From NCBI GenBank assembly GCA_947500435.1, contig CANMRV010000003.1, forward strand, positions 291,271-355,270: a stretch of 64,000 nt of DNA, in the 5' to 3' direction. Within the stretch, counting starts at the first letter, position 1, and each line of letters starts with the position of its first letter. This stretch comes from an uncultured Flavobacteriaceae bacterium (lineage in GTDB: Bacteria > Bacteroidota > Bacteroidia > Flavobacteriales > Flavobacteriaceae). Under the pieces are notes generated by a model. It did no database searches. It saw nothing but the letters and a program-made list of their open reading frames with translations, and was not told the DNA's origin. This document shows positions 3,701-28,963 of the stretch, piece by piece. The position numbers and the translations under genes are program-made.

Positions 3701-6700
3701 TGCACTATTACCAACAGCATTTGGAGTTGAACCTAGGTCTATTACATTCAAGGTATATGTGCCTTCGCCTACGTTATTTAGGGTAAGTCCTGTTTCACCA
3801 GGCAAATCACCCAAAATGGCCTCTGACCACTGAAGCGTGTATGGTCCCGTACCTGCGATTGAAGCGGTTATGCTACCATTGGTTTCTCCGAAACATGGGT
3901 TTTGCTGAGCTGCTATATTTATAGATAAGGCGCCGGGCTCACTTATCATGAAATCTTGAGGAAAAGTACAACCGGCATCATCAGTTACTATAACACTATA
4001 GGTTCCTGGACCCAAACCAGAAACGCTTGGATCTATTATGCCGCCTACATTAGGGCCTGACCATAAATACCGGAATCTTGGAGCAATACCATCATCAAAG
4101 CCACCTTCAAAAACAGGCGTAATTGCACCATCCATTAAGCCTTCTGCAGATACGTTCGTCACTATACTAGCAGCTTCATTCCATGTGATAGCTGGAGTAG
4201 CTGCAATGTTCACGGTTTGCGTAAGAATACATCCTCCATTTTCTCGAATTCTGACGATGTGGTCTCCTTCCGAAATACCAGTAAAGGTACCTGAAAACTC
4301 AAAATTATTTTCATCATCAACACTATAACTGTAAGTAGGGTTTGGATTTAAGGTTCCTCCAGCAACATTAGATATTGTGATTGTGCCTGTATCGCCATTG
4401 AAACAACTTGGTGTTAGGTCTATCATGGCAGAAATTGCAGCAGGTTCTTCTATGATTACCGTATTGGGACTTAGAAGCGGCCCTATATCTGCATCTTGAA
4501 CAGACAAACGATATTCACCTGGGGCAACTCCGATCAGTGTAGCTGTATTAAGACTGTTGGTTTCAGAGTCAACTACTGTTCCGTTTGGGCTACCATCTAC
4601 CAAAATCCAAGTATAGGTAACTGGCAGGGTGCCTTGAACTAAGGCGGTCAACGTTCCATCGTTTTCACCGTTACAGGAAACATTGGTTCTTGTAAAGGAC
4701 TGAATTGACAAGGGGCCTGGTTCGATAATCAGTATGGGCCCAAGCGTTCTTTCACAGTTTTTTTCATCTCGAACTAGCACCGAATAACTTCCGGCTAATA
4801 GATTTTGAATATCTTGTGTATTGTTTGCATAAGGTCCGCCACCATTCAGTAAAACACCTGTCCATTCAAAAGTATAGTTAGCTACATTGCCATTCCCCCC
4901 CGATACATCTATAAAAATAGCACCGTTATTTCCTCCATTTGTGGTTACGTTTTGATGCAGAAGTTCATCTTCAGTTACCGTTAAACCATTAGGTACAAAT
5001 ATGTTGTCTAACTCATTAGTTGATTCACACCCAACAAAATCAGATGTGTTTCTTCTTGTACGAAACTTAATGTCATCATATGTTCCCGTTTGAGTAATTG
5101 GAATTTGAAGGTTTGGGTCTAGGTCAATCCAAGTTCCTAGGTTTCTATAGGAATATTGGAGAAGAGGTCCCGTTTCTGATACTGAAATTTCGATATACCC
5201 GTTTGCCGTTCCATTACAACCAAGACCAACAACATCTACTAAACCAATGGTTAACTCAGGAGGGTTTACTAAGGTAAATGTTTCGGTTGCTACGGTAGCG
5301 GGCACGTTAAAATCTCCAGAATTATAGATGACCTCAATGCTATAGGAACCATTACTCAAGTTATTAGCAGTTATAGTCACTGGTGTCGATGGAGATGCAG
5401 CTCCATTGCCAGTGGAAACTTGAGATCCTACATTATCTAATATCCGATACGCATACGGACTTACAGGGTTTGTAATTACCATAGAAACACTACCATCGTT
5501 ACCGTTATTACAAAATGGATCTGTGGGAACCGGCTCCTGCAACATGGGTATGGGAGCTGATTGAAGTTCGTAGGTGTCGACACTAGTAATAGTACACGGA
5601 TTGACATCAATAGCCCTAAGATAATAGGTGCCGGCAGGCAAGCCAGTAAAAATATGATCTCGGTCGTTACCTGTCAAAAGAGTTGATTGAACTAAAGCCG
5701 GATTTGCTGCATCATTAAAAATCTGTAAGGTGATAGGCGATACGCCTCCATTTAACTCAACTTCGATAGAACCGTCATTGCCACCTGGTGTTGGATCTTG
5801 CCCTATTCTAGTATTCGTTGTGTCAAATTCGAAAGTAGGGACAGGGTCTATAGTAACTACTTGAGAAGCATTACCAATACAAGTAGCTGACGTTCTTGCA
5901 TAAAAGATATAACTTCCTACATCAAGATTCGAAAAAGTAGCTGTAGGGTTGTCCCAATTAATAGCGCCTCCATCTTTTTGAATGCCATATTCCAGAGTAG
6001 CATTCGGGTTTGGGTCAAAACCTCCACCTGCGCCAACCAAGGTAACTTCTCCAAGGTCTCCAGAACAAACAGGCTGAGTAATATTGTTGGTTGGTATGGA
6101 AATGCTTATTTCAGCGGGCTGCCTAATGGTAAACGTTTGTTCAATGAGCTCTCCGCTTTTTACAACTACAGGATCAGAATTGTAATCCACCTCTTGGTAA
6201 ATAATATAATAATTTTGTTGATTTTCTTCACCAGGTGGAGGATTTGGATTGGTATTCATTCCATCAAGTTCTGAATAAGTGCCTCTAAAGCTGCCATCAC
6301 CATTCGCTACAAGTGGACCTGAAGGACTTGTGGGACTAAACAATACTTCATCGAAAACTTGATTTGGGAAGGTAGTCCCGTCAACAGTTTCAACAACCCC
6401 TGTAAAATCAGTATAATTTCCTTGAAAAATAAAGTAACGCATTCCAAAATTGGTCTCAACATCATTTTTAAAATTCAAGGTAATTGATCCATCATTTGAA
6501 TTATCATTTGAATTGTCATTAGAACTATTGCATGATGCATCTACTATTTGAATCGGGTCAGTTTCTCTCAATTCAATGGAGCATGCTCTTGGAGTTAAAG
6601 CTAGGATAGCACTATGAGCAGGAGTGGAGGGATTCTCTACATACCGTACTATTACATCTATAATTCCCAAATCGCTTGGACTTTCGTTCGTAATATCTGT

Positions 6701-7351
6701 CAAATCAAAGGTGAAGCTAGAAGATTTAAGACCATAAGAAGATAGTTCTCCTTGGGCTATAATACTACCTAACGGATCTCTTAATCTATAATCTAAAGCA
6801 TAAGAAAATTGAGCGGCTTGACATGCTTCTGCAACCTCAATGGTGTAGGGTTCACAGTCTTGTAAAGTAGTATCATCATTTAGATCTGATAATAGTGAAG
6901 GAAGTTGTACTATTCGACCATAATTCTCGGTAATGTTTACGCAAGGACTCCAATTCCTTAACGCGGTATCAAGTAAATTTTCCCTACATCCGTCAAATAG
7001 GCCAAAAGTATTATTGAAAGGTTGAAAGTTATTTTCTGGACATTCAGTATCATAAAAATATCTCAACTGAGTTTCTGGGGCGGGAGTGGTAATTACATCG
7101 TCAAATTCTGTGATTAATCCATTCTCATCGTCGGGAAAGCGCAGATTTTCATTGTAGATATCTATACCAGAAGTAAAAAATCTTATTCTTAGATCACTAT
7201 AATCGTCATCATTTGTATCATTGTCAGGATAATCATACAGATTATGTTCAATGTTATACTCTACTTTGTATTTGGTTTCTTGCCCAAAAAGCGTATTGCA
7301 AAATGAAAAGAGAAAAATAAAAATAAGTTGACCGTATAAGAACCTCTTCAT
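734..7351 (-). CDS. Giant cell-surface adhesin with tandem SprB-type repeats and a T9SS type-A C-terminal sorting domain
   Basis: 2205 aa with an N-terminal signal peptide. Many ~35-aa repeats of the form C.G..(N/D)G.I.....GG..PYTYQW (SprB repeat signature). C-terminus IYPNPTTGRFT...GVYAVLLETPYGSSLRKIIVR resembles the Por_Secre_tail / T9SS CTD. Confidence 0.8.
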   Translation of the reverse strand: MKRFLYGQLIFIFLFSFCNTLFGQETKYKVEYNIEHNLYDYPDNDTNDDDYSDLRIRFFTSGIDIYNENLRFPDDENGLITEFDDVITTPAPETQLRYFYDTECPENNFQPFNNTFGLFDGCRENLLDTALRNWSPCVNITENYGRIVQLPSLLSDLNDDTTLQDCEPYTIEVAEACQAAQFSYALDYRLRDPLGSIIAQGELSSYGLKSSSFTFDLTDITNESPSDLGIIDVIVRYVENPSTPAHSAILALTPRACSIELRETDPIQIVDASCNSSNDNSNDNSNDGSITLNFKNDVETNFGMRYFIFQGNYTDFTGVVETVDGTTFPNQVFDEVLFSPTSPSGPLVANGDGSFRGTYSELDGMNTNPNPPPGEENQQNYYIIYQEVDYNSDPVVVKSGELIEQTFTIRQPAEISISIPTNNITQPVCSGDLGEVTLVGAGGGFDPNPNATLEYGIQKDGGAINWDNPTATFSNLDVGSYIFYARTSATCIGNASQVVTIDPVPTFEFDTTNTRIGQDPTPGGNDGSIEVELNGGVSPITLQIFNDAANPALVQSTLLTGNDRDHIFTGLPAGTYYLRAIDVNPCTITSVDTYELQSAPIPMLQEPVPTDPFCNNGNDGSVSMVITNPVSPYAYRILDNVGSQVSTGNGAASPSTPVTITANNLSNGSYSIEVIYNSGDFNVPATVATETFTLVNPPELTIGLVDVVGLGCNGTANGYIEISVSETGPLLQYSYRNLGTWIDLDPNLQIPITQTGTYDDIKFRTRRNTSDFVGCESTNELDNIFVPNGLTVTEDELLHQNVTTNGGNNGAIFIDVSGGNGNVANYTFEWTGVLLNGGGPYANNTQDIQNLLAGSYSVLVRDEKNCERTLGPILIIEPGPLSIQSFTRTNVSCNGENDGTLTALVQGTLPVTYTWILVDGSPNGTVVDSETNSLNTATLIGVAPGEYRLSVQDADIGPLLSPNTVIIEEPAAISAMIDLTPSCFNGDTGTITISNVAGGTLNPNPTYSYSVDDENNFEFSGTFTGISEGDHIVRIRENGGCILTQTVNIAATPAITWNEAASIVTNVSAEGLMDGAITPVFEGGFDDGIAPRFRYLWSGPNVGGIIDPSVSGLGPGTYSVIVTDDAGCTFPQDFMISEPGALSINIAAQQNPCFGETNGSITASIAGTGPYTLQWSEAILGDLPGETGLTLNNVGEGTYTLNVIDLGSTPNAVGNSAAVVLVEPQAITADIVTTASCAANDTGTIVISNVQGGEPGNPQDYTYSIDGIDFQDPPLFENLAAATYSVWIRDGNGCDLITSGVTIDPSPPIVWDEPNIIVTNATAQNASDGSITLAFTSDATNYTYQWNGPGTVNEATQNLIGKAAGVYTVIVTNENGCTLERIFTIAEPGILTITVSSTKNPCFGENNGNIQTTVVGTGNLSYQWSEAVLGDLIGETGPNLNNVPQGTYTLTVTDDAVNPPNVVSSNPVTLSDPAAILDAQVVSTNAQCAGEANGSVTITVSGGIPPYEYSIDAGVNYQAQASFNALGLGTYSIRVRDSNDCIADAAFTINEPPAITLSTVATPLSAAGFADGAIDIAASGGTGDLNFSWVGPPGFIPTTDEDISGLIAGEYVVTVQDENGCSFTSDSITIDEPGAIIIMLTINEEILCNGDEFGEIIADVQGGVPDYTYQWFQEGNNTALSETTNLISNLAAGNYFLRVTDANGISRNSNVLPLTEPNALQVTLQNKVDIVCSGDDSGSININVQGGTLPYTFQWSNGATSQNLANIEAGDYFVEVFDANGCSDLLEITINPAPDALQLEATVTNVSEYLANNGSIALIITGGSNPYTINWTKDSDNTPAGNSRTLTALAADNYTVVVSDANGCNTTETYEVTQPDIVEDTIVQPSCQGDTNGSISVLVNQGNGSFTYLWSTGEITNTISNLGAGNYSVTITGFGDGPLTRNYTLEDPLALEVDLGPNRVLCVDQVLELDATVENETATYTWTSDNGFSSSEPNVTLTTTGNYTVTVQTASGCTAIGTLFLEVSTNEIDAEFAVSSQVFTGEVLVAVDISFPLPEVVEWQVPEGVTVVKQDSDEVELIFDQAGEYEITLVTQRGDCIAQKTKKVLVIAKDGSVNEDDDSRKLVEDFIIYPNPTTGRFTADVSLSERGNISIKIFNFANNAMMASERGTGDTSYSIPFDLSGMPSGVYAVLLETPYGSSLRKIIVR

Positions 7352-7354
7352 ATT

Positions 7355-9415
7355 TTAATATTTTACATTAATCTTTTTAATTACCGATACACTACCTTTA
7401 CTTAAAACCAATTGAAGTCCGTATGAATAATTTGAGTTAATCTCTAGATCCACATCATTATATCCCTTGGTATCTTTATCTAAGCTTTTGTATAATTTCA
7501 AATTATTTTTTTCAGTACCACGATATAAGCGAAACTCTAATACTTCGTGGTCTTTAACCTTCCATGAAAGGGCAATAAATCGCAGTTCACGATTAACAGT
7601 TCCTGAAAATTTGATATCATCTTCGTTTAATGTTTGACCTTTCCAAACGATGCTGATGGAATTGGAAGGAAAACTTTCTAAGCCTACTGAGTCTTTCGCA
7701 ATAAGGGTATAGTAATAATTGTTTGGCTCTAATTCTTTTGAATCTAAAAAAGTCGTGTCAGTTTGAATAGTAGATTCAAAAACTTGTTCCCATTTTGTTT
7801 CTGATGTATCTCCACTTCTGCGATATACTCTATGTGATGCAATATCAGAACTGCTACTAGGAATCCAATTTAGGCGAATGCCTTCTTCAGTAACCTCAAA
7901 CTTGGTAAGCACCGGAGGAGAAGGTGGCACCAAATCAGGTTTGACTATAGTTAACATAGCTGAAAGTTCAGAGCGATTGTAACGCTGATCTTCCGCCTGA
8001 AGTTTATAATAGATTTTTTGGTTTAAGTTCACTGCGGGAACAGTATCAAAATAAGTCTCGCCCTCTAAAGTTTGGTTGGTAACTTCACTAAATTCTACTT
8101 TCGGATTGTTCGCTCTAAAAATGCGATAGCCAGCCAGATCTTCTTCCAAATTCTTATCCCAGCTGATAGTTATAATACCTGTTGTATCCATCTTACCGAT
8201 AAGGCCAACAGGAGGTTTTGGCGGAATGGAATCCACAGGTTGTACCATGGAAGTAAATGATTCACTATCAAGTCCATTTTTTCCTTTGGCTATGATTTTA
8301 AAATAATTGATTCGCTTCAAGTTTGTTACTCGCGTACTACGCTCTTCTGGAGGGATACCTTGCTTAACGATTTCAAAAGGCCCTTTATCGGTACTGCTCC
8401 GTTGCAATTCGAAGCCTGAAATACGTTCGTTTCCTTTTTCATCAAAATTCCAAAATAAGATAGCTTCTGTATCCGTAGGAATCTCTTTTCGATAAATTCG
8501 GGGCACGAATTCGAGTTCCTTTTTAGCACCACCAAATACCACCTCTGAAGGCTCGCTAGTTTCATTGAAAGCTGTTTTTCCTTTGATACGATAATAGTAA
8601 GGCTCTCCGTTAGGAATGGAATCTGTATAGTATAAAGACAGTGATTCGGTACCATCATTTTGCTCTGCATTAAAAATGGGTAATCCGTTGAGTTGCGAAA
8701 AATTACTATTATCAACAGAACGTTCAACTATATAGCTGGTATAAATGCTTTGTAGTAAACCAAAGTTCCAACTTAGTTGCGCATAGCCATCACCAAAGGT
8801 GGCTGCTAGGCCTATAGGGAGGGGTAATTTTTCATACAAATCCGTACTAGCATAAACAGCACCTTCTTTGATTTTTAAAGTAGATTCTTGGGGTAGGGCA
8901 ACGCTAATCGTATATACATACTTTTCTCCTGGTATTACGGACTTATCTTCAAAACCCCACCCTGCCATTTTAGCAGCTTCAAAATTTTGCTCTGCTGCCA
9001 GTAGCGCAATAGTAAAGCGTTGTTCTAATTCTTCGCTAATCGCATACAATTGACCCATTTCACTGCCTGGGGTCGTAACTTCAAAACTATCACCGAACAA
9101 GGCTTGTGCCAGTACCGCAACATTTTGATCTTGATTTGCCAAAGTCGCCCAATTTTCCAACGGCTGTGGTTTTAAGGGAGTATTCGTAAGCATTTGTCGT
9201 TCTATAGGAACCACGGGCATATCATTTCTGGCTATCGTGGCGCGTTCAACTAAAAACCCGTATGTATTGGCTTGTTGCCAACCTAGAGGTTCATTGACAG
9301 CCCAGCGTAACATTGTTTTATTCGGTAAAGGGCGTGCAATAACCTGAACCGATGTGGAATCTTGTGCCCAGCATAGTTTGCCGATAAAAATGAATATAAG
9401 AAGTAAATGTTTCAA
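7355..9415 (-). CDS. Secreted fibronectin-type-III-rich protein
   Basis: 686 aa with a signal peptide (MKHLLLIFIFIGKLCWAQ). Repeated fn3-like blocks (YYYRIKGKTAF, IYYKLQAEDQ, YYYTLIAKDS, YSYGLQLVL). Only 3 nt from the adhesin gene, so likely co-transcribed. Confidence 0.6.
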   Translation of the reverse strand: MKHLLLIFIFIGKLCWAQDSTSVQVIARPLPNKTMLRWAVNEPLGWQQANTYGFLVERATIARNDMPVVPIERQMLTNTPLKPQPLENWATLANQDQNVAVLAQALFGDSFEVTTPGSEMGQLYAISEELEQRFTIALLAAEQNFEAAKMAGWGFEDKSVIPGEKYVYTISVALPQESTLKIKEGAVYASTDLYEKLPLPIGLAATFGDGYAQLSWNFGLLQSIYTSYIVERSVDNSNFSQLNGLPIFNAEQNDGTESLSLYYTDSIPNGEPYYYRIKGKTAFNETSEPSEVVFGGAKKELEFVPRIYRKEIPTDTEAILFWNFDEKGNERISGFELQRSSTDKGPFEIVKQGIPPEERSTRVTNLKRINYFKIIAKGKNGLDSESFTSMVQPVDSIPPKPPVGLIGKMDTTGIITISWDKNLEEDLAGYRIFRANNPKVEFSEVTNQTLEGETYFDTVPAVNLNQKIYYKLQAEDQRYNRSELSAMLTIVKPDLVPPSPPVLTKFEVTEEGIRLNWIPSSSSDIASHRVYRRSGDTSETKWEQVFESTIQTDTTFLDSKELEPNNYYYTLIAKDSVGLESFPSNSISIVWKGQTLNEDDIKFSGTVNRELRFIALSWKVKDHEVLEFRLYRGTEKNNLKLYKSLDKDTKGYNDVDLEINSNYSYGLQLVLSKGSVSVIKKINVKY

Positions 9416-9431: not shown

Positions 9432-12400
9432 TTAATCGTTTTTATATTTGATTTGATAACCCTTTTCGTAAATATTTCCTGGGGTGCGATAAATTAATTG
9501 TGATTTGTACGTACCAAGAGGTAAGGGTGGGAAAGGGCGCAATAAATAGTTGAAGCTGTCATATTGGGCTGTATTACCATTACTGGTGTTATAGCGATTT
9601 AAAATACGTTCTCTCAAGTAGACCATATCATCGTTATATTGATAAGGTAGGTTGTAAACAAAAGGTATTCTATTTTTGACCCATGAAGAATTTGGGTTAT
9701 TTTCAAGATTCGCTAGATATTCATTGCCGATATAGAAAGAACGTACGGGAGGAACACCTAGAACGTCCTCTTCCCTATCGACTCTAATTTCCCCATTCTC
9801 AGGGTCCAAAGGATAGACTTCTTCATCGTAAAGTAAGGGGCCTATCTTATTTTTATAATAGGAGTCATCTAAAATTGCCTGGGCGTATACCAAAGGTTGT
9901 GAGGCGGTATATCTATCTCCAAGAATTTCCATTTTATCTAAATATTCGTAATCAGAGACTTTTATCGATAAAGAATGAACATCGGTATATATTGGATTGG
10001 TCAAATTATTGGTGACATTTAAGTCATTTACTTTGTCTTTAAAAGAGGGATGTTTACTAGTTTTAAAACCATACTCCAGAATTGATTTTGGTGCGCCGTT
10101 AGCTATGGTAACATTAGCTGCTTTTTTATTAGACACCACAGCACTAGCCGATGTGTTCTTTGTTTCTTGAGCGCCCGAAGAAGGGTCAAACCAAGCAGTA
10201 TCACCACTTTCTTCCCCAGCTAAGACATCAGTCTGCTCTATTATGATTTCTGTTTGGATATCCGCTCCTGGAGGGAAAACAACAAGGTTTAAATCATGTT
10301 CTGTATTCAGGGCCAAACTGGGTACATCATAAAATACTGTAGCATTTGATCGGTCATAGGACACATTGGTACGTTCTCCCTGACCAGACGAGCCAACAAA
10401 TTCTGCTCGCATTTCAAAACCACTATCGAATAGATAGTTTTGAGCGGTTATCATTTTCACATACCCCTTGTCAAATTCCTCAGGGTAAAAACTTTGTTGA
10501 TCCAGAACAGGATACATATAGGCAATATTTTCAAATGGAATATGGTCAGGGGCCTTATCTGTGATAAATGTTGATTCCCCTTTTTCAATAACTGGATTTC
10601 CGTTATCCATCATGGTTTGAAACGAACCACCTATTTTTTCATCGAAACTTACTTCTACAACTACCTTGACTTCTTTTTCCGATGGAAGTGTTTCGGCAGG
10701 TTTAAAGGTTACCGCGTCATTAGTATCATTCCATTCCAATTCCCCCTGCAACTCTTGACCTTCTGAGATTACCGTAAAGTTCTTCAACTGTAATTTAAAC
10801 GTACGTACAGCTTCATCAAGTGCTACTGTAAACTCTTTATTAGCAGCGTAATTAAACACTGCTTGAGGGGCTGCAAAAACAGATACATCATCGCTTTTGT
10901 CTCTAGGTGTAATATCAGAAATTATAGGTACGCCAACAGCATCGCCGATATTTTCAAGTTCACATTCTTCTCCCATTTCTACCTTCATTCGCATTCGTCC
11001 TGAGACTAATCCCCCTAAAATATTATAGTACATACCCACATAGCCTTGTATATAAACTGGATTGGGAAACTGCCCTCTTAACATTGCTGCCACACCAGCT
11101 TCAGCAATTTTAAAATTCCCTTTTATAAAGGCCAGGTTTACTTTTACACCAAATTCTCCATAGAGATAGGCGTACACCTGACCCATAGAATACCAGCCAT
11201 TATTACCAACTGGTCCAGGACGCCCTTTACATTTTGCATTTGGGTAGTATGCATGCATTACGTCGAAACCTGCTCCTATTTCCACTGAGGCGTAAAACAG
11301 GGCCCAATCCCATGCATATCCATAGCCAAAATTCATACCGAAGGCAAAACCTTTACCAGCGGTGAGTTGATTTTCTTTTCGTTCGCCATTCAGCATATCA
11401 TCTCCTAAAATCTTTACGACAATAGGGTGTGGGTCTAATTGCGCTGGTAAATTAGTTCCTGTCATAAAATAACCACCCACCCGAATCTGAACGCCAACAT
11501 TGAAAAGTAAATCTATACGTTGTTGTGGTGTGCCAATATGCATATACCACTCGTCTGGCCCGGTATGAATTTTAGCATATCCGGCCAGGTTATTTTCTCC
11601 ACCCCCCCGTACTGCAGCTAAATCTAAATAGAGTTTGAACTCGCCATCAAAGGTGCCGTTAACAAAGTCTCTTTCTATTCCAACATAAACTCCAATCTTA
11701 CCTGATGCAGCTATATCAGTTACGGGAATAGATTCTTGAGCAACGCTCATATAATTTCCATTAGCCTGGTCCGCTTCAGCCGTACTGCTATTTTCAATGG
11801 TTTGTTCAACTTTGTTTGCTGTTTTTGCTATGTCAGTAGTACTTTGACCAGTGCCATCACCCATAACCGCTCCTTCTCCCATGAACCCAATACGGTTCAA
11901 ACCACCATGGATATTAAACTCCATTTCAAGGTAGGCCTTGCAAGAAAAAGATCCGGCATTTTTGGTTTGTATCTTGACTCCGGCTCTAATACCTAAACCT
12001 GTATTGGCATCCGGTTCATATACGGCAGTTCCTGGTTGAAAACCAGAGGTATTACCACTGACTTTCCGCATTCGATTTGAGATACCTCCCACAAAAGCTT
12101 TAAGGGGTAGTTTTGATTCTCCTGTCTCTGTAACATTATCCATCCAAACGTCAACGGACCAATATCTAAAATCAGTTTTTCCGAAAATGGCACGACCGCC
12201 TACTTGAAATTTTAACTTTTCAAAAGTAGCACTTAATTGACCATCAAATCCGTCGCCGTAAACTGGGTCGTCTTCCATGACCTTTAATTCTCCCTTGAGC
12301 TTGAAATTACTTTTAGTGTAATCAATTTTAATACCATCTACTTTAACCCGTTCGAACTTCCACTCTTGAATTTTAGCGCCATCTTCTAGTTTTCCAAGAA

Positions 12401-14423
12401 CATCTAAACTTGTGGTAGCGTGTGAACCTCCACTGTCCAAATTAATTTTTAAGTCGAATGAGAGTCCTGCAATATCATTACTGGGAGTTACAAAGGCTAA
12501 ATTTGCAATAGAAACTGGAAAGTTCATCAATTTCATTTCGCCTTCATAGCCGAAATATTTGGCTTGCAGGGCTTTCGTACCGGGCTCGGTTTGTATTTCA
12601 AGCTCTTGAAAAGCAATTCCAGAAAAGTCAAAACCGTTTTTGTTTTCAGGATCTGGTTGCTCGTCTTTCTTTTGATTGACTTTACCTGCGATAGCAAGCT
12701 TACCAGATAAGTTGGCATACGGATAGACATTGCCATCTTTTACGTTTATGGCTACGCTTGAATTACGCTCTAACTGCATTTCTCCAAGGAACATAGGAGT
12801 GGTATAATTGCTCTGCAAACCAACCTCTAAACCATAACCATCTTGTGAGATATAGCCCTCATAGCTCATAGGTTTCTCAAAAATAGGAACCGCAATATCA
12901 CCACCAATAGAACCTCCTGTAAGTGAATTTCGAGAAAGTTCGATGCTGACATCTTCTATAGTAAAGGCCCATTTGCCTGCTGAACCATCACCTGTTTGTA
13001 AAACATTTTCGGCAAAAAATCGCCCTGATACGCCCTGACTATCGAGTACTAGATTTTGAGCGCCAAAAGTGACACGTTTGTTTGAAGTTTTGGTGTTTTC
13101 AATACCCTTGGGCAACATCACACTGACTTCTTGCGCATAGAAACCGCGCCATAATTTGCGGTCGCTACCTGGGTAGATACTATTGTAGTCAGGTGGAAGT
13201 ACGAGATTGGGCGAACTGCGCGAATCACTTAGATCCATTACTACATTTTCTAGGTTGAAGCCCCAGCCTTTTAGGCCGACTACTTCAAAACGTGGGAGAT
13301 TGACTTCCATTAAAAGATCGTTCCAGCCGTTGGCTTGAATGCTAAATGAAGTGCCGACATAGCATTTGTTATCTACTGCGCCATCATCGGTAAGTTGTTG
13401 ATTGGGACTATCACCACAAACATAATTGCCATCAAGATCGATGGGGAGTAAGACTTTTCTTGAAATACGCACATCACCTTCTAAAGCAATTTCTTTAAGC
13501 CCTGAACAGTCAAATTCTACAAAAGAGGTATCGGCAAAAGCACCGGTTTTAAGGTCAACCCCTCCTTTTAAGGTTAAGAGCCATTGCTCTCCGTTTAAGG
13601 GAATGGACTGATTACCCAAAAGCACTAGTTTCATACCTCCGACCAAAGCGCCATCATGGGTAAGTTTAATACCTTCGGCACCAAAGAATATTTCACGGTC
13701 TGAACCCCCATTTTCCCCTTTTTCTGGGATGGTCATTTTCGCCCATGCCTTAAACTCTGCATATTGTGGCGTAAATTTTACTTGCGTAATGGCAAGTTGC
13801 ACTGAATTGCCAGAAGTAGAGTCTTTTTTACTTAAACCTACAGGGAGCTCTAAAAGTTCTTTACCCGTAATAATATCAACAAAATTGCCCAGTTTGGCCA
13901 ATGCATCAAAAGCCCGTTTTGCTTTGGCAACGAGAGTATCTGCTTTTGGGTTTCTACTAAAATTAGTTGCAATAAACTCAGGGTTAAATTCAGGTTTTCT
14001 ATTCGCAAAAGAAATATTGAATTGTTCGTTTTCTAAGAGTTTTTGGTCCAAGGTTGGGAAAGACCGAAAGGTTTTTTGAGTCTCGGTATTTTCAGTAGAG
14101 GTATTGTTCCCTTGAGGGGACTTTAGGGGTGTAGATGTAAAGGTGCTATGAAAACCACCACCTTTTCGCACCGCAGCCAATTGCTGTAATTGCGCCAAAT
14201 AAGCTGGGTCTGGTTTTGTTCGACTGAGCCTTTCGACTCCGCTCAAGACAGGCTCAGCCGAAGTCTTGGCGCTGTCTTTTTCTTTTGGGTTTAGGGTGTC
14301 TTTTGAAGTAGAAATCAATTCATTAGAAATCTCAATGCCAGTTTCTATGAAGGAACCATTTGGACTTGACCATAGCTGAATGGTCCAAAGGAATATTATG
14401 ATATATATGTAGTTTTTATTCAT
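9432..14423 (-). CDS. Large (1663 aa) secreted or membrane-anchored beta-rich protein of unknown function
   Basis: Long ORF with a hydrophobic N-terminus (IYIIIFLWTIQLW). No motif I can assign. Co-directional with the toxin/immunity pair and the adhesin genes. Confidence 0.55.
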   Translation of the reverse strand: MNKNYIYIIIFLWTIQLWSSPNGSFIETGIEISNELISTSKDTLNPKEKDSAKTSAEPVLSGVERLSRTKPDPAYLAQLQQLAAVRKGGGFHSTFTSTPLKSPQGNNTSTENTETQKTFRSFPTLDQKLLENEQFNISFANRKPEFNPEFIATNFSRNPKADTLVAKAKRAFDALAKLGNFVDIITGKELLELPVGLSKKDSTSGNSVQLAITQVKFTPQYAEFKAWAKMTIPEKGENGGSDREIFFGAEGIKLTHDGALVGGMKLVLLGNQSIPLNGEQWLLTLKGGVDLKTGAFADTSFVEFDCSGLKEIALEGDVRISRKVLLPIDLDGNYVCGDSPNQQLTDDGAVDNKCYVGTSFSIQANGWNDLLMEVNLPRFEVVGLKGWGFNLENVVMDLSDSRSSPNLVLPPDYNSIYPGSDRKLWRGFYAQEVSVMLPKGIENTKTSNKRVTFGAQNLVLDSQGVSGRFFAENVLQTGDGSAGKWAFTIEDVSIELSRNSLTGGSIGGDIAVPIFEKPMSYEGYISQDGYGLEVGLQSNYTTPMFLGEMQLERNSSVAINVKDGNVYPYANLSGKLAIAGKVNQKKDEQPDPENKNGFDFSGIAFQELEIQTEPGTKALQAKYFGYEGEMKLMNFPVSIANLAFVTPSNDIAGLSFDLKINLDSGGSHATTSLDVLGKLEDGAKIQEWKFERVKVDGIKIDYTKSNFKLKGELKVMEDDPVYGDGFDGQLSATFEKLKFQVGGRAIFGKTDFRYWSVDVWMDNVTETGESKLPLKAFVGGISNRMRKVSGNTSGFQPGTAVYEPDANTGLGIRAGVKIQTKNAGSFSCKAYLEMEFNIHGGLNRIGFMGEGAVMGDGTGQSTTDIAKTANKVEQTIENSSTAEADQANGNYMSVAQESIPVTDIAASGKIGVYVGIERDFVNGTFDGEFKLYLDLAAVRGGGENNLAGYAKIHTGPDEWYMHIGTPQQRIDLLFNVGVQIRVGGYFMTGTNLPAQLDPHPIVVKILGDDMLNGERKENQLTAGKGFAFGMNFGYGYAWDWALFYASVEIGAGFDVMHAYYPNAKCKGRPGPVGNNGWYSMGQVYAYLYGEFGVKVNLAFIKGNFKIAEAGVAAMLRGQFPNPVYIQGYVGMYYNILGGLVSGRMRMKVEMGEECELENIGDAVGVPIISDITPRDKSDDVSVFAAPQAVFNYAANKEFTVALDEAVRTFKLQLKNFTVISEGQELQGELEWNDTNDAVTFKPAETLPSEKEVKVVVEVSFDEKIGGSFQTMMDNGNPVIEKGESTFITDKAPDHIPFENIAYMYPVLDQQSFYPEEFDKGYVKMITAQNYLFDSGFEMRAEFVGSSGQGERTNVSYDRSNATVFYDVPSLALNTEHDLNLVVFPPGADIQTEIIIEQTDVLAGEESGDTAWFDPSSGAQETKNTSASAVVSNKKAANVTIANGAPKSILEYGFKTSKHPSFKDKVNDLNVTNNLTNPIYTDVHSLSIKVSDYEYLDKMEILGDRYTASQPLVYAQAILDDSYYKNKIGPLLYDEEVYPLDPENGEIRVDREEDVLGVPPVRSFYIGNEYLANLENNPNSSWVKNRIPFVYNLPYQYNDDMVYLRERILNRYNTSNGNTAQYDSFNYLLRPFPPLPLGTYKSQLIYRTPGNIYEKGYQIKYKND

Positions 14424-14494: not shown

Positions 14495-15226
14495 TTATAT
14501 ATCTTGTTCTAAACTATAGGTAACAAATTCACTCTCGCGATCATAGGGAATGCTATTGTGCGGAGATTTAATAATCAACTTATTCCAAAAACTCCATTCT
14601 TCTGTTAATTCTTGGTTAGTTATTTTATGGTGTTCCAAAATTGCGTTGATTAAATAATCAGGAAGAGACATCTTTAGCCTTCTCGAAATTCTATTTTTGA
14701 CTAATGTTATCTTGTGAAGAACTTTATTGTCAAGAATCTTAAATTCAAATTCTCCTTCGTCCCATGAAGACTCGTAAAAATCAAGCTCTCCATCATCATC
14801 ATAAACTGGTGTTAATAATTTTTTCTCTTTTTCAAAATCATAAATTCTATTCATCATAGTTTCGTTGAGCCATTGATAAAAAACTCGAGATTGATTTAAT
14901 TTTTCGGTCTCTACGTTTTGCAGATTATATTCATATTCTATTGAAAGTTGTAAGTTCTTATTAAGAGAAATTAGAATGGTATTAAACTTTTTTTCAGAAT
15001 CTTTTAATTTTCTCTGTCTATCAATTAAATGTTTGATATATGGTCGCAAAACCCTTAACGGGATTGATAAATTCTCTAACTTATTGTTCTTCTCGTTAAG
15101 AAAGGTTGCTTTCATACCGTATCCTCCACTCTCTGTAAAGCTCAATTTAAGCTTAATTTCATGCCAAAAGTTTTGGTCAGCTAATTCGCAAATTTTATTT
15201 ATTAAACCATTTTCTTTGTCCATCAT
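14495..15226 (-). CDS. Small cytoplasmic protein immediately downstream of the nuclease-toxin gene; candidate immunity protein
   Basis: 243 aa with no signal peptide. Starts 9 nt after the stop of the 2005-aa nuclease-tipped protein. Strongly AT-rich and rich in K/E/N. Its position fits the toxin-immunity gene order. Confidence 0.5.
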   Translation of the reverse strand: MMDKENGLINKICELADQNFWHEIKLKLSFTESGGYGMKATFLNEKNNKLENLSIPLRVLRPYIKHLIDRQRKLKDSEKKFNTILISLNKNLQLSIEYEYNLQNVETEKLNQSRVFYQWLNETMMNRIYDFEKEKKLLTPVYDDDGELDFYESSWDEGEFEFKILDNKVLHKITLVKNRISRRLKMSLPDYLINAILEHHKITNQELTEEWSFWNKLIIKSPHNSIPYDRESEFVTYSLEQDI

Positions 15227-15235
15227 ATCTAAATT

Positions 15236-18200
15236 TTAATTCTGCGGATTGGGAAAATATGTTTGATTACCATTGGGTAGCGTATTTATCAAGACTCCTT
15301 CCATTTTAACTTCAACATCAAAACCTGTTGGTCTTTTAGAAGAACCACTGAACTCTGGGTATATAGTAAATTCTATTGTTTTACCGGGATTATTTTCACG
15401 TAACTCAGTGACAAACTTTTCCATATTAAACCATTCTCCAGGAGGCTGGTTTTGCGATGGAGCCTGGGGGAAGTAGTTAATTTGCTCCGAAGGGCCAAAC
15501 CATTCTGCTTTAACCATATGACCACCATCATCGGTCGGATATCCATCTTTTATATTTTTAGTATTTGATTGATATTCTTGATTTCTCCCTCTCGGGTTTA
15601 TTTCAATGTTATTTACCTTTATCTCTTTAACTCTACCAAGTTCATCCGTATAGAAGTTGAAATTACCGTCAACTTCATATTTGAAGTTTTTCATTAATGG
15701 AGGGTTAGCATTTAATAATTTATTCCAGCCTATTCCTGTATTGCCGCCTTTGGCTCTAATTAAACCCTGAGAAAAATCAGCCCATACAGTTCCTTTATTA
15801 TCAACAAGCCTTAATTTGTCTCCAACTTTTTCAATTGACCAAGTGCTTGGTAAAGAACTTCGTGTTACTAGTTCTAAAAATTCATCGTACTGATTTCCAA
15901 AAACATTTTTTAAGTCATTGATGATATTAGTTGGTAAGTTATCGACAAACTTCTTTTTTAAAGTAACGAACTCCCCTGATGGTGACAATCCTGTATTAAG
16001 ATTTGCTAATTCATCAACCTCCCCATTTGCCTTAGAAGTATACCAATCACTTGCTTCTACATGACCATTCTGGTAAATTTTCATCTCACCATTAGAAGCG
16101 ATAATGTCTCGACCTACAGCCTTAGAAATATCTTTTGCTCCTTCAACAGTATTGCAGCTAAGTAATCGAATCGTTTTGGTATCGGGGATGTTTTTTAATG
16201 CCTGCCCAAGTTCTTCTGCGGTCATTAGTACTGTTTCTGTGACACCATCTAACTCTATTATTACTGGAAATCCGGTTCCTGCATCGTCAGCATGTACAAT
16301 AACGTCAACGTAGTTATCACTGTCGTTTAGGAAATTTTTAACTTTACTAACTTCTCCGGCTGTTAAATCAATGATACTAGTTGCTACCTGCGAATTTTTT
16401 AAACTTATAAAGTTTTCAATCAACAAAAGTTTTGCCCTAGCTTGTCTAGCTTTAAGAGCTAAATCGGTTGAGTTACTTACTTTACCTTCAGCTTCAATTT
16501 GTCTCAACCAGCCTTTGGCTTCTTCTATCTTATTTACTCCTATCTCGGCGATTTCATCAGGGGAAACTTTATCATCTAAAAGTTTATCTAAAAAATTATT
16601 TACTTGGTCTTTTGATGGGAGAGGTTTTGTATTTAGCTTGGCTTTGGAAAAAAGCGTTTTTAAATTTTTTACGCCACTCCCTAACTCACCTACCGCAACT
16701 ATAGCTGTTAAAACATTTAGACTTTCTAGGACAGCTTTAGCATTGGGGCTTAAATTTTCAGAAGATGATGATAGAACAAGATTAACGCCTGAACCCAACA
16801 TATCCGCTATTATGTAGGCCTTTCGCAAAGCCGAAGGGCCCTTGACTAAGGCTCCATAACCAGTAGCCAAACTCGCAACATCAATGGTAGTTTCAATACC
16901 ATCTATTATGTTTCTAGTATTACCCACATCATTTGCGTAATAAGCTAAAACAGAAGGTGCAAGAACTGGAGTTTTATTATAATCACTAAGCATACTTAGT
17001 GAAGATTTATTTACAAACCATATGGGGGCAAATGGGTCTACTTCTAAGGGATCTGTAGTTGGAATTTCAGTTAAATTACAAGAGAATCGATTTTGGATAA
17101 CTATGTTAATAGAATTGTCCGAAGCCCAATCAGTTGTCGTATCTGGATTACATTCAAAATATGCAAAAGATGATCCTAATGCCGCAGTTTCAAAAACACC
17201 ATCCCAAAAACTTCGATGGTAAAAGTTAATGTTATAATTTATAAATTCTTCATCCGAATATGCTAAAGCAGCATCTTTAAATTTTTTGGATTTTAAAGCC
17301 AATGTAGAAATTGTTTTTATTAGCTCTAGATAGTTATCTTCTGTTATCCAAGTATGGTCATTATCAATTTTATAGACTAATCTTTTAAGAATATACTCAT
17401 CCTCTTGAGTTTTTGATTTCTCTTTAAGTTTGTCAAACAAATCTTCTATATCAGTGTCTTTGGTAAACTTTAGAAGTCTAATGATTTCTATTTCGGTAGC
17501 ATCGTTTGTCACAACGCCCCAGTCTGTTAAGATACTTAATGCGATAATTTTGTTATCTACACTTATCTCTTTAATCTCATTATCAGACAGATTGTCAATA
17601 CAACTAACCACAGTATTTAAAGGCGTATCAATAGTGATATTGGTTAGGGTTTCTAAACAATTTTTGAATTCGTTTTTAGTCGAATTAACCAAATCAATGT
17701 AGATACCAATTATATCGTTGATTGAAACAGATTCTTTTCTAAATACGGTGTAGGCTTTTTCAGAAGTATAAATACTGTTCTTTAAGTCTGGTACGCTCGT
17801 AGTGGTCTTTAATTTTCTGTATTGCTCAGCTACTATATCCGGATATATATTATTGAGAGTTGCTAATTTGGAAACGATAAAATATTTGCTATTCCAGGAA
17901 ATATTTTCGCCAAAAAAATGTTGGACTAGACTCTGATTTAAATTGTATGAAGGGTCATAAGGAGTGGATTCACCGTATTTATAATTTCTTTCCTTTAACT
18001 TATTTTGGCTTATTGTTGCTTTTGTAAGTCTATTGTAAGTACTAGGTTTTAAAATATTTACTTTTTCATTCTCTATAAATGTTAAGTTTTCTATTTTGGT
18101 TTTCAATAACCTTCGTCCATCTCCATCTGGGGCAATCGTAATAATGGCATTATGATATTTATCTCTTCCATCCGCCGTATAATTCTCAAAACCTTTATAA

Positions 18201-21200
18201 GTAAAATTAAAGCTCTCTATTCCTATAACTCCTTCGAAATTAACTCCATCAACTGAAGCCGAATATTTAACATCTCCAATTTTAAATGATTGCAATGCCC
18301 CTGTTGGATATAGCCCGTAAGGATTTAATTTGTCGATTCCGGTTATAAAACTTAGTTTCTTAGCTTCTTTCGGCAGGGTTATATAACTGCCATTCATCGT
18401 TAAAAAGGTATATGTTCCGTCGGGATTGGCAAATTCATTTGGAATGCTTGAAACAACAGTATTTTGCCCATCCTCTTCTTTCTGAAAAACATAAAACTTC
18501 AACGCTGGGTTATGAATCTGCGCCCAATGTTTGTAAGGCAATGCCGTACCTCCATTATAGTCCATGAGCCAATTGGTAGCTCCCTGTTGCATATCATACT
18601 GACCAAATGGATGTTGTAAGGCAAAAACCCCATGACCCAATTCATGAGCCAGTACTTTACCCATATCACCACCTTTGTCCTCTTCATTGGCATTACCACT
18701 AAATACAAAGCCCATCTGCCGTTGTAGTGGCATAAAACCTGAAATAGAGCGTGAAGGTTTGATATTATTTCTGTCAAATACTAAAATGTAATAGGTGTCT
18801 TCTTTGTAGCCTTCAAGTTTTTGCACTGCGGAGACCAGCTGTTTTTGTTCATCGTTATAGGCAGTTAACCAAGCACTTTCACCTACATCGAGTCCGTTAT
18901 CGCCTAAACTGTTAGGGTCTACTTGTAGTTGTAAAGAAGATTGAAAATTGATTTTTGCAACGCCTTTTTGAAAGATATTTTGAACCGTATTTTCAATAGT
19001 GCCAAGAGAGGCGTTATTAACAGAAACTAGAGCCACTTTCACTTCACGCTCTGTTAAATGCCATAAGGTAAATGCACCTGCTGTGAGTTGTTTGCTGGTA
19101 TCCTCTTTTGAAGGTACTACAGCGTAGAGAGTCTCATTTTCAAAGGTGTAGGTTCCTTTGATGGTCAGTGTTGCCGAATTGCCACTTACTGTTTTAGGTA
19201 TGACTTCGCCCTGCTTGGTTTTGAAAATAACTTGGTCGGCGGTATAAGCATTATTCTCTATATTAATGGTAGCTTGAATTTGCGTTTCACCACCCTTTTT
19301 GACCGAATGGTGTGCTAACACATAATCATTGCCTTTAGCATCTTTGATACTAGTATATTCCTTTTTCAATTTTTCATTCGCCGAAGAATGCATTTGGTCA
19401 AAGCCATACGTACTAGGAGTATTAAAGTTTACCGTAATTTCCTCTGCGGTCAATGCTTCAATTTGACCGTTATTGCGAACTCCGTCGACATTTCCAGCAT
19501 TTACCTCTCCACCGGGGTCGATTTGCCCACCTTCGGTAATGTTGCCTCCTGCATCAACATGGTATACGTTTCCATCTTTATCAATAATGACTTTGTCATC
19601 CCCAAGTGGTTCAGATTCGGTAGCCCCATTTTCAGGGTTTGTGATAATCATTATACCATCTACAATCTCAATGTCATTCTCTGGGTCTAAAACCCAGTTG
19701 ACTCTGATTTCATCAAGATCATTCTGACCTTCAAATACTTCTCCTACCGCATCAGTAATATCATCAAGTGTATCAATAGCATCATCAATATCAAGGATAT
19801 TACTAAGACTAGGATCATACATCGTAATCACCGAACCTTCAACCAACTGGTTATCAGTATTAATTAATACATTGGTGAATTCTACCCCAACTCGAATACT
19901 GCTTAAGTAAGGTATAGTCACATACCCTTTCCCCGTAAAACGGCCATTACTACCGCTCGCTTCTATAACCTTAATAGGAAAATCACCAGCAGTAAACTTA
20001 TCACCTATCGTTTGTAAAGGGTCTTGATTCGTTAGGTTAAAGTCTGGAGCAATACCACATTCATAAACACTTTCTTCATCATCGGCAATAAATGTGGTGA
20101 ACTGTTTTGAAAGACTCCAATCACTTTCAGTTACCGTACATTTTTTATTTACTTGATATTCGTAGGTAGTTCCCGCTTTAAGATCCCAGAGGGTAAGGAG
20201 GTTGGTTGTGGTTTTACTTTCAAACCATTCGTTATCACCACTTGAAGAAGTTTTTCGATACCGCACTGTATACTCTGGGATATCCGTAGAGAAATCATCC
20301 CAAAAGATGTTTGCGTTGGTACTTCCTTTTACTTCATGATTAACTGCAGCCGGAAGCTCACAAGAGGTAGCATAACTAAAAGAATAGATTTCACTGTAGC
20401 CTTCATTTTTGAAGAGTCCGATTTCCTCAGTGCCTTGTTTGGCTTTTGCTTGAACGCGCCAAGCGTACTTTTTTCCAGAGAGTAAGAGCGGGTCCGATGG
20501 GCCATATACATAGGTCGTCGCTGAGGTCGTTGTTTGAAAAACAGGTGGAGAACTTAAAAAGGCTTGTTGTGGATCCACTTGGTTATCCCAAATTTCTACC
20601 AAACTCAATTCGTACTCTACATTGCTAACGTTGATACTACGAGGGGTCCATTGAAAAACAATATATTGTGGGTTGACCTCATCAACATTCTCTTTATTTC
20701 TTGGGAGTACCAAAAAGGGAGGTTCGTTCTGAAAGACCACACTAACTGCACAGCTTTTATTGGAAAGTCGGCTACCCGTCAATACATCATATACTTCAAC
20801 ACAGAATTGATAAGCCCCTTCGGGTATGGCATTCCCATATTGATTGGCATTGATGCCTGTTATATTGTTAAACTCAAAATAAGGTGCTAATTCAACATTG
20901 GTCAATACCAAAGGAATTCCACCCTCTAAAAATAAGGGACTAGCCCCAACTACAATATCATTGCTTTGGAAGGATAGTCCGCTTCCGGTGAAATAGGTTT
21001 TTAGGCGTATCTCACGATTGGCGATTTCAAAATCGTTTAAAATAATCTGCACACGCAACGGACTGCTAACTGTACTGGCATCTGCGTAATTTGAGACATA
21101 GATGGGTGCTGGCGGTAAAGCCTGCGGGACTACTTGTACTGGGAAGGATTGGGCTGTTGAAAGTACGGAGTACAAAGTACAAAGTACAAAGAGGCACATC

Positions 21201-27637: not shown

Positions 27638-28963
27638 ATGAATTCCTCATCTTTGCAAGATAAAGAAATCCGTTGTTCAATAAATTCTATTGCCTTGAAA
27701 AATCTTTCGGAAAGAGATAAAGAACATTTGTGGCACCCGTTGACGCAACACAAATTGAATCCTGAAATGTTGCCTATCGTAAAGGCAAAGGGTGCTGTTT
27801 TGTATGATGAGGAGGGCAATGAATATATAGATGGAATTGCCTCATGGTACACGACCATGTATGGCCATTGTAACCCGCACATTACTGAAGCTATGACACG
27901 GCAAATGCAAGAACTTGATTTTGTAATGTTCAGTGGCTTTACCCATAAACCTGCGATAGAACTTTCTGAACAGCTGATCGCCATTTTGCCAGATAACCAA
28001 GAAAAGATTTTTTTCAATGACAATGGTTCTACCGCTATTGAAGCTGGCATTAAAATGGCTTTACAGTACTATCATAACAGAGGTGACAAAAGAGATACAT
28101 TAATCGCTTTTGAAAATGGATTTCATGGAGATACTTTTGGAGCCATGAGTGCTTCAGGACTTTCATCCTACAATGGTCCATTTGAAGATTTTCTTTTGAA
28201 GGTAGAGCGTATTCCAGTCCCGAAAGACGATACCATTGATGCGGTGCTTCAGCAATTGGAATCTATTCTCAAAAACAATTCATGTGCAGCTTTTATTTTT
28301 GAACCGTTAGTACAAGGCGCGGCTGGTATGAAATTCCATTCCGCAGCTGGACTAGATAAGCTTATAGAAAAATGCAGGCAGCACAATGTCTTGACCATCG
28401 CCGATGAAATCATGACCGGCTTTGGTAAAACGGGAAAAGATTTTGCCAGCGATTATTTGGAGAACAAACCAGATATTATATGTTTGAGCAAAGCCTTAAC
28501 CGCGGGAATGTTCCCTTTGAGTATTACCAGTTGTTCTTTGGATGTTTATAACGCTTTCTTGAGTGATGAGGTTTCAAAGGGTTTTTTTCATGCGCATACT
28601 TTTAGTGCTCACCCATTAGGATGTGCCGCAGCTTTAGCAGGAATTGCACTTCTGAATTCCCCCGAAATTTTAGAACGACGCAAGTACATTGAAAAGGCAC
28701 ATCAAGATTTTGCTTTGGAAGTCAAAAATCACAATTCGGTTCAAGAAGTCCGTTGTAAGGGCGTGATTCTTGCTATTGATTTGAAAGTACAAACCGATAG
28801 ATATGGTTCTTTAAGAGATAAATTGTACAAGCACTTTATGAAGCAAGGTGTAAATCTTCGCCCACTAGGAAATACAATTTATGCCTTACCGCCCTATGTG
28901 ATAACGGATGAGCAGCTACAAGAGGTTTATGATGCTATAAGAGGTGTTCTAGAAGTCGTCTGA
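27638..28963 (+). CDS. bioA: Adenosylmethionine-8-amino-7-oxononanoate aminotransferase
   Basis: Class III aminotransferase motifs FHGDTFGAMS and ADEIMTGFGKTG. Start chosen at the internal ATG (27638, MNSSSLQ), because the track start 27590 overlaps the convergent GT39 gene. Confidence 0.75.
   Translation: MNSSSLQDKEIRCSINSIALKNLSERDKEHLWHPLTQHKLNPEMLPIVKAKGAVLYDEEGNEYIDGIASWYTTMYGHCNPHITEAMTRQMQELDFVMFSGFTHKPAIELSEQLIAILPDNQEKIFFNDNGSTAIEAGIKMALQYYHNRGDKRDTLIAFENGFHGDTFGAMSASGLSSYNGPFEDFLLKVERIPVPKDDTIDAVLQQLESILKNNSCAAFIFEPLVQGAAGMKFHSAAGLDKLIEKCRQHNVLTIADEIMTGFGKTGKDFASDYLENKPDIICLSKALTAGMFPLSITSCSLDVYNAFLSDEVSKGFFHAHTFSAHPLGCAAALAGIALLNSPEILERRKYIEKAHQDFALEVKNHNSVQEVRCKGVILAIDLKVQTDRYGSLRDKLYKHFMKQGVNLRPLGNTIYALPPYVITDEQLQEVYDAIRGVLEVV

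Follow-up and report, generated by a model that had tools for sequence, protein, structure and literature searches.

Among the described systems that come closest to the one reported here are those of the immunity proteins EsaG and YezG, which have been shown experimentally to confer immunity to the NS_2 nucleases EsaD and YeeF (PMC9616950). The corresponding immunity family, Imm36 (DUF600), has a BH3703-like fold and a "W, W" signature of two conserved tryptophans, and was identified as the main partner of Tox-NucA nucleases, Bacteroidetes included (Zhang et al. 2012, PMC3482391). For the TANFOR class of polymorphic toxins, Jana et al. characterised the toxin BaCT and its immunity protein BaCTic; no domain or family was given there for the gene downstream of NUC/YeeF tips (PMC7073777). 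Here, we describe a gene in this position in a 64,000-nucleotide (nt) stretch of DNA from an uncultured marine Flavobacteriaceae bacterium (contig CANMRV010000003.1, positions 291,271 to 355,270), referred to as the window. The open reading frame (ORF) at 14495–15226 lies directly downstream of a large polymorphic toxin with a C-terminal Endonuclea_NS_2 (NucA/YeeF/EsaD-type) nuclease and encodes, with a probability of roughly 85%, the immunity protein of that nuclease. An earlier note had proposed it as a candidate cognate immunity gene, and this proposal is supported by the linkage of the gene to the nuclease tip at homologous loci, by the change of gene in the same slot when the tip differs, and by a predicted fold that matches EsaG and BH3703.

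Linkage of the candidate immunity gene to the nuclease tip

The ORF is AT-rich, with a guanine–cytosine (GC) content of 29.8% compared to 38.0% over the whole window and 40.1% over the N-terminal 900 codons of the toxin, and follows the toxin on the same strand after a spacer of 9 nt (Table 1). This spacer places the two genes in one reading frame, in an operon-like arrangement. The ORF listing starts with ATG-ATG, and the public gene call (P0001) takes the second ATG, yielding a product of 242 amino acids (aa). No Shine–Dalgarno-like sequence was visible in the spacer, as is usual in Bacteroidota. Glutamate (10.7%), lysine (10.3%) and asparagine (8.6%) together make up 29.6% of the residues, although leucine is the commonest at 12.8%, and the product has an isoelectric point of 5.8 and a grand average of hydropathy of −0.69. 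The highest Kyte–Doolittle mean over 19 residues was 0.44, and by this criterion there is therefore no signal peptide or membrane helix. The size, base composition, position and residue bias given in the earlier note, as well as the absence of a signal peptide, were thus all borne out. Judged by its sequence, the product is a soluble cytoplasmic protein; its orthologue in A. brevivitae, WP_130284853.1, is listed with neither a signal peptide nor a transmembrane segment (Jana et al., PMC7073777). A search of the rest of the window for paralogues or orphan copies of the ORF gave none.

A word-indexed search of 5.8 billion proteins yielded 13 clusters of homologues at 41–53% identity, and Maribacter, Aquimarina or Tenacibaculum was the source of every cluster bearing an organism name. 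When 1.84 billion representatives were searched with a profile, only 58 family proteins were obtained at E ≤ 1e-3, several of which are only 103–117 aa long and correspond to the N-terminal module alone, while six loci with a homologue were found when one genome from each of 185,579 species was scanned with the immunity alignment. Every named source belongs to the Flavobacteriaceae. The homologue alignment contains 44 invariant columns, mostly in the C-terminal half. No Pfam or NCBIfam family matched the ORF at E ≤ 1; the best matches in the scans of the ORF and its halves, Ago_N_1 (E = 0.04) and Ino80_Iec3 (E = 0.095), were taken as chance, as was the sole match of a 46-sequence family hidden Markov model (HMM) to sequences in the PDB, a phage tail protein (E = 1.1). 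The low GC content and the absence of a family match are what might be expected of a chance open frame in AT-rich DNA, but in view of the homologues, the invariant columns and a structure predicted with high confidence, this can practically be dismissed.

Linkage to the tip was mapped by tblastn with the last 305 residues of the toxin, which placed the end of a homologous tip directly ahead of nearly all family members. (Related loci and proteins are referred to by our own handles, beginning with L and P, respectively.) In 11 further independent cases, a family member was found 0–27 nt 3′ of a homologous nuclease tip (L004, L005, L006 (two), L007, L003, L013, L014, L018, L019 and L020). The toxin and immunity ORFs abut in L013, and the open frames overlap in L014. 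Full-length toxins were present in T. skagerrakense (L004), A. brevivitae (L005), Tenacibaculum sp. 1B UA (L006), Tenacibaculum sp. MAR_2009_124 (L013) and an uncultured Tenacibaculum (L014), and the pair persists in L005, L013 and L014 despite unrelated middle regions of the toxins. Three of the loci, L018, L019 and L020, had been picked by homology of the toxin alone (P0107, P0126 and P0091), disregarding the downstream gene; in these, the genes found 4–13 nt downstream matched the family HMM with E values of 5e-103, 1e-52 and 6e-113. A survey of homologous loci had been named beforehand, in the earlier note, as a check on the proposal, and its outcome favours immunity: all homologous tips examined have a family member 0–27 nt downstream.

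The linkage extends to truncated toxins. In L007, a short toxin of 388 aa, comprised of the last 76 residues of the scaffold and the tip, is followed by the immunity gene. Orphan tip remnants of 97 aa in L003 and 87 aa in L006 both begin past the DDGGH motif, and an intact immunity gene comes after each. The L006 remnant is part of a two-cassette array (L006:8856-10723), in which a divergent family member (37% identity to that in the window) comes directly after the full toxin, and the tip remnant of 87 aa precedes another family member, P0012; this second cassette is a displaced orphan module such as those found in contact-dependent inhibition (CDI) and Rhs loci. The only exception to tip linkage was a lone copy in Maribacter spongiicola (L001:10001-11535, 52% identity), for which no nuclease remnant was found in the 700-bp gap upstream. 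This copy is probably an orphan immunity gene. It adjoins a gene for a PemK/MazF-family toxin with a small ORF ahead of it, which together may be a type II toxin–antitoxin pair. Near the orphan cassettes of L003 and L007, Pfam scans of the small ORFs gave no useful information. The L007 cassette lies beside genes for a relaxase, a type IV secretion system coupling protein (TraG/TrwB-like), a NikA-like protein and ParE (L007:1336-8207), so that a conjugative or mobilisable element may carry it.

These remnants also bear on the question of whether the protein acts mainly as a chaperone or adaptor, keeping the toxin C-terminus export-competent or targeting it to a secretion route without conferring protection. 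A tip-specific chaperone would show tip linkage as well, and one report places the S. aureus EsaD–EsaG complex within the pre-secretion complex (PMC10653861). However, the retention of intact copies beside truncated, catalytically dead tip remnants in L003 and L006, and of the lone Maribacter copy, fits immunity against the toxins of neighbours and not a chaperone. Furthermore, the fold family has a demonstrated immunity function (PMC9616950), and a toxin with a Sec signal peptide would cross the inner membrane unfolded. We consider a chaperone function improbable.

The gene follows the tip rather than the toxin scaffold. In L015 and L017, the scaffold is shared up to approximately aa 1773; another tip follows, and the immunity slot is taken by a 236-aa gene that is unrelated. 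Synteny with the window is seen in L016, with what appear to be the same flanking biotin genes and with cluster genes that are 74–82% identical; the toxin of L016 is 51–94% identical to that in the window up to approximately aa 930, beyond which only the NS_2 nuclease core can be detected (42% identity). After this divergent NS_2 tip (37% identity), the immunity slot in L016 holds a 121-aa gene instead (L016:13642-14007), the product of which has a weak match (E = 2.6e-7) confined to the N-terminal module of the family. A fixed structural or regulatory role in the six-gene cluster, unrelated to the tip, would explain the constant position of the gene within a cluster that is conserved across genera. 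A gene with such a role would not be expected to give way, in each locus with another tip (L015–L017), to one that is unrelated or much shorter, while the other cluster genes in L016 stay so similar, nor to occur outside the cluster, as the family does in L003, L007 and L001. We regard such a role as highly improbable.

Two observations were made on these alternative slots. In L015 (L015:14058-14768) and L017 (L017:14005-14715), an unannotated tip with the sequence FESHHIFP precedes the conserved 236-aa protein, which has no Pfam family; the tip may be an HNH/AHH-like nuclease, and the two together are another candidate toxin–immunity pair. Relatives that consist of a single module of 103–117 aa were also found (P0173, P0176, P0183 and P0189), so that, with the 121-aa protein of L016, separate proteins of approximately 103–121 aa exist as N-domain-only relatives of the ORF. 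The N-terminal module alone may therefore be a functional immunity unit.

The relationships among the toxins point the same way. The N-terminal 900 aa of the toxin in the window are 82%, 71% and 67% identical to three toxins that lack its tip module (P0021 and P0016, which have other tips, and that of L016, which has only the divergent NS_2 core), but the identity is only 37–43% to every toxin with which it has tip and immunity gene in common. Pairwise identities of tip and immunity protein over ten cassettes were correlated (Pearson r = 0.69, Mantel p = 0.0002). An initial comparison of seven pairs had not been significant (r = 0.43, Mantel p = 0.09), and significance was reached with ten pairs and proper alignments. 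The correlation shows joint inheritance of the two sequences and by itself is no proof of co-adaptation. The GC content falls from 40% in the N-terminal part of the toxin, through 34–36% in its C-terminal half, to the 29.8% of the immunity gene. Together, the tip-linked replacement in the slot, the discordance with the scaffold, the correlation and the drop in GC content show that the immunity gene was acquired jointly with the C-terminal half of the toxin, in a single cassette that has moved between genomes as a unit. Features found generally in polymorphic toxin–immunity systems, namely an immediately 3′ gene on the same strand, a change of this gene with the tip, orphan immunity genes and displaced tip fragments, were all present.

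Predicted fold and mode of inhibition

A structure of the protein was predicted with AlphaFold2 from a 13-sequence alignment (mean predicted local distance difference test score, pLDDT, of 90.2; predicted template modelling score of 0.72). In this model, the protein is made up of two modules linked by a long helix (aa 102–134). The C-terminal half consists of the long helix, which carries the VFYQWLNETMMNRI motif, and a β-sheet domain, while the N-terminal half is predicted to have the order helix, three strands, helix, two strands, the same as in the C-terminal half. The only fold matched was that of EsaG and BH3703, at about 13% sequence identity to EsaG, and the part that superimposes is the C-terminal half (aa 104–243). 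The modelling thus shows a BH3703-like α+β fold, that of EsaG/BH3703 (DUF600, Imm36, YezG-like), as the predicted structure of this half. This match is independent of the gene linkage and strengthens the immunity reading. The statement in the earlier note that no known immunity family could be recognised accordingly held at the level of sequence, where neither Pfam nor NCBIfam gave a match, and did not hold at the level of the fold.

The protein is probably a tandem duplication of an EsaG-like module, in which the N-terminal half is a degenerate copy. This is suggested by the shared order of secondary structure elements, by an alignment of the two halves with hhalign (probability 58%, E = 1e-4), in which W21 pairs with W155 and F81-N82 with W214-N215, and by a distant relative, P0190, whose C-terminal half matches both PF04634 and the HMM of the family N-module. 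This PF04634 match, to residues 122–220 of P0190, was the only one among the relatives and scored 19.0 bits (E = 0.0016), which is below the cut-off. The first module is fast-evolving and the second conserved (Table 1). In the C-terminal half, W214 is invariant and position 155 is either W or Y; in the N-terminal half, the first position is an invariant W21 and the second is F81. The link from these residues to W26 and W97 of EsaG depends on weak alignments.

Several points weigh against the assignment. The fold match comes from structures predicted from only 12–13 sequences, and the support for duplication of the N-terminal half is only moderate. Neither the ORF nor either half matched PF04634 (gathering threshold 21.7 bits), even at E ≤ 10, and a search of PDB sequences with the profile of 46 family sequences did not find EsaG. 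When aligned by hhalign with a DUF600 profile of 108 sequences, either half reached a probability of at most 19%; this profile is shallow (effective number of template sequences about 2) and mostly staphylococcal, the protein search seeded with EsaG and BH3703 having yielded almost only S. aureus paralogues, and it is too shallow for a fair test. An hhalign comparison with EsaG alone gave a collinear but non-significant alignment of aa 15–98 with EsaG 20–114 (probability 17%). A relationship to EsaG/DUF600 is therefore not demonstrable at the sequence level. The tip–immunity correlation, in turn, may result from inheritance as a linked cassette rather than from co-adaptation. Finally, given the Sec-type signal peptide of the toxin, the immunity protein may or may not meet it before export; guarding against incoming toxin would suffice.

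The gene would be co-transcribed and very probably translationally coupled with that of the toxin. The immunity protein would bind the nuclease domain 1:1 in the cytoplasm of the producer and of siblings that receive the toxin, thereby blocking DNA cleavage. By analogy with EsaG–EsaD and YezG–YeeF, inhibition could occur through insertion into, and deformation of, the ββα-metal nuclease domain rather than by capping of the active site. Such an EsaG-like mechanism is speculative, and we hold it only tentatively. Alternatively, the protein could act in the conventional way, like the immunity proteins of colicin DNases, and leave the nuclease domain intact while blocking its active site or its DNA-binding face. 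This possibility, to which we give somewhat less than an even chance, would be consistent with the low identity to EsaG, with an architecture unlike that of EsaG (two modules and 243 aa compared to about 160), and with tips that are distant from EsaD, with which they have a Pfam family in common and nothing closer shown. On the other hand, EsaG and BH3703 are the sole structural relatives of the model, deformation has been shown in two distant pairs, EsaG–EsaD and YezG–YeeF (PMC9616950), and the segment equivalent to the αA′ helix of EsaG, which contacts the N-terminal fragment of the toxin, is the most conserved in the family.

For the deformation mechanism, it can be envisaged, again speculatively, that the two modules have separate tasks. 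[quoted passage not shown] As a whole, we consider this arrangement rather unlikely.

The toxin and the surrounding gene cluster

The positions of the toxin, its parts and the surrounding genes are listed in Table 1. The nuclease domain retains the catalytic motif DDGGH as well as EQINYFPQ, and Pfam places an Fn3 domain at aa 309–381 of the toxin. More than 500 homologues of the scaffold were found, with N-terminal regions of approximately 900 aa that are about 36–93% identical to that in the window, mostly 53–82%. Their C-termini include AHH, EndoU, ART, deaminase, WHH/colicin-DNase, Tox-REase-3, Tox-SHH and NS_2 domains. The orthologue in A. brevivitae, WP_130284852.1, which is 39–40% identical to the toxin in the window over the N-terminal 900 aa, is listed with TANFOR, Fn3 and NUC domains, with TIGR02542 at residues 25–157 (PMC7073777 supplement). 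No NCBIfam match to TIGR02542 was obtained with the full toxin of the window or with its aa 1–400, and whether the library holds that model was not established. The toxin is probably a member of the TANFOR class, a group of polymorphic toxins in Bacteroidetes, and the traits of this class found at the locus are the Fn3 domain, the polymorphic C-terminal domains and a neighbour with a T9SS C-terminal domain (CTD).

Table 1. Location of features in the window, with positions counted from its first nucleotide.
Feature	Positions	Strand	Description
2205-aa protein	734..7351	minus	terminal T9SS type A sorting domain, TIGR04183, E 7.8e-11
686-aa conserved cluster gene	7355..9415	minus	81% identity in L016
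1663-aa gene	9432..14423	minus	begins 71 nt past immunity gene; no Pfam family; 74% identity in L016
Candidate immunity gene	14495..15226	minus	243 aa; stop codon 14495-14497; acidic; 29.8% GC
C-terminal half of candidate immunity protein, aa 104-243	14498..14917	minus	conserved, mean pairwise identity 52%
N-terminal half of candidate immunity protein, aa 1-103	14918..15226	minus	variable, mean pairwise identity 22%
Toxin–immunity spacer	15227..15235	minus	9 nt between toxin stop and immunity start
Polymorphic toxin	15236..21253	minus	2005 aa; N-terminal signal-peptide-like segment
Polymorphic tip, about aa 1774-2005	15239..15934	minus	L015 and L017 toxins alignable up to window base 15935, then diverge
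Toxin C-terminal ~1075 codons	15239..18466	minus	replaced together with immunity gene relative to syntenic L016; GC 34-36%, N-terminal part 40%
Endonuclea_NS_2 (PF13930) nuclease, aa 1856-1985	15299..15688	minus	Pfam E 1.8e-16, 61 bits (cut-off 27)
819-aa gene upstream of toxin	21295..23754	minus	no Pfam family; L016 counterpart 82% identical

Two features of the toxin lie close to the limits of its variable part. At aa 870 there is a zincin-like motif, HELGHGVFALQHPF (HELGH), and the similarity to the L016 toxin stops about 60 residues further on, at approximately aa 930 (window ~18466-18650). The motif may be part of a processing peptidase domain, which would mark the boundary between constant and variable regions. 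Immediately before the tip, a segment of about 85 aa (IRLLSCN...GEMKIY...; window 15935-16189, aa ~1690–1773) is 40–46% identical to the corresponding segment of the L015 and L017 toxins, which have unrelated tips. The end of this segment marks a second recombination boundary directly ahead of the tip.

The toxin and immunity genes are part of a six-gene cluster (window 734–23754, minus strand) that is found across genera of the Flavobacteriaceae, including L004, L005 and L015–L020, and consists of the 819-aa gene, the toxin, the immunity gene, the 1663-aa gene, the 686-aa gene and the T9SS substrate. A gene of approximately 800–870 aa occupies the slot upstream of the toxin in L004, L005 and L015–L019, and a cut version is present in L020. 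The 1663-aa gene is conserved behind the immunity slot in related loci. The 2205-aa protein at the end of the cluster has counterparts in related loci that bear Pfam SprB repeats, and the neighbours of TANFOR toxins are enriched for SprB and CTD domains (PMC7073777). No Pfam family was found for the 819-, 1663- and 686-aa proteins, which could be parts of the delivery machinery for TANFOR-class toxins.

Beyond the cluster, at 23969–28963, ORFs of 393, 123, 205, 495 and 457 aa match genes in L016 by length and order only. Their L016 counterparts have the families Aminotran_1_2, none, AAA_26, PMT_2 and Aminotran_3, respectively, and resemble biotin-synthesis genes. The toxin cluster seems to stay at a fixed chromosomal position while the cassette varies.

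Comparison with known systems

The principle described here is not new. That NucA-type toxins pair with immunity proteins of the BH3703 fold had been predicted in 2012, with the demonstration following in 2022, and its occurrence here will not surprise the specialist. What is added is a probable function for a small unannotated family and, for those members that are full-length, a predicted fold. For TANFOR toxins with NUC/YeeF tips, the family would provide the immunity partner that had been missing, and it takes the EsaG/YezG (DUF600) fold past the reach of the current Pfam model, into the Bacteroidota and a two-module architecture. The locus is also a clean natural case of exchange of a toxin C-terminal half and its immunity gene at a single chromosomal position.

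Of the other immunity proteins known for Tox-NucA toxins, Imm-SUKH and Imm-NTF2 share the class of toxin partner (Zhang et al. 2012, PMC3482391). The protein in the window gave neither a Pfam nor a structural match to either of these and has a different fold. The TANFOR toxins (Jana, Salomon and Bosis 2020, PMC7073777) likewise have a scaffold that carries many alternative C-terminal toxins and is found next to T9SS substrates, and the 238-aa gene 12 bp downstream of the toxin in A. brevivitae, unannotated in that study, is a member of the family described here.

With the CdiA-CT/CdiI and Rhs-CT/RhsI systems, the locus shares the exchange of toxin tip and immunity gene as a unit, the displaced C-terminal fragments with intact immunity genes, and a GC content that is lower in the cassette than in the scaffold. 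It differs from these in the delivery scaffold, in showing neither a VENN nor a PxxxxDPxGL demarcation motif, and in the unusual length of the replaced region, about 1075 codons.

The likeness to EsaG, YezG and BH3703 (PF04634, DUF600, TIGR01741, Imm36) lies in the adjacent Tox-NucA/Endonuclea_NS_2 partner, in the window and in the 11 further cases, and in the predicted fold. In contrast to EsaG and YezG, which are single-domain proteins of about 160 aa that counteract type VII secretion system LXG/EsaD toxins in Firmicutes, the protein in the window has an additional N-terminal module and is paired with a Sec/TANFOR-class toxin in Bacteroidota, and no long tandem arrays of paralogues were seen. 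Taking the predicted structure as a guide, the protein is probably a divergent, two-module relative of the EsaG/YezG/Imm36-fold immunity proteins, serving a polymorphic toxin of the TANFOR class.

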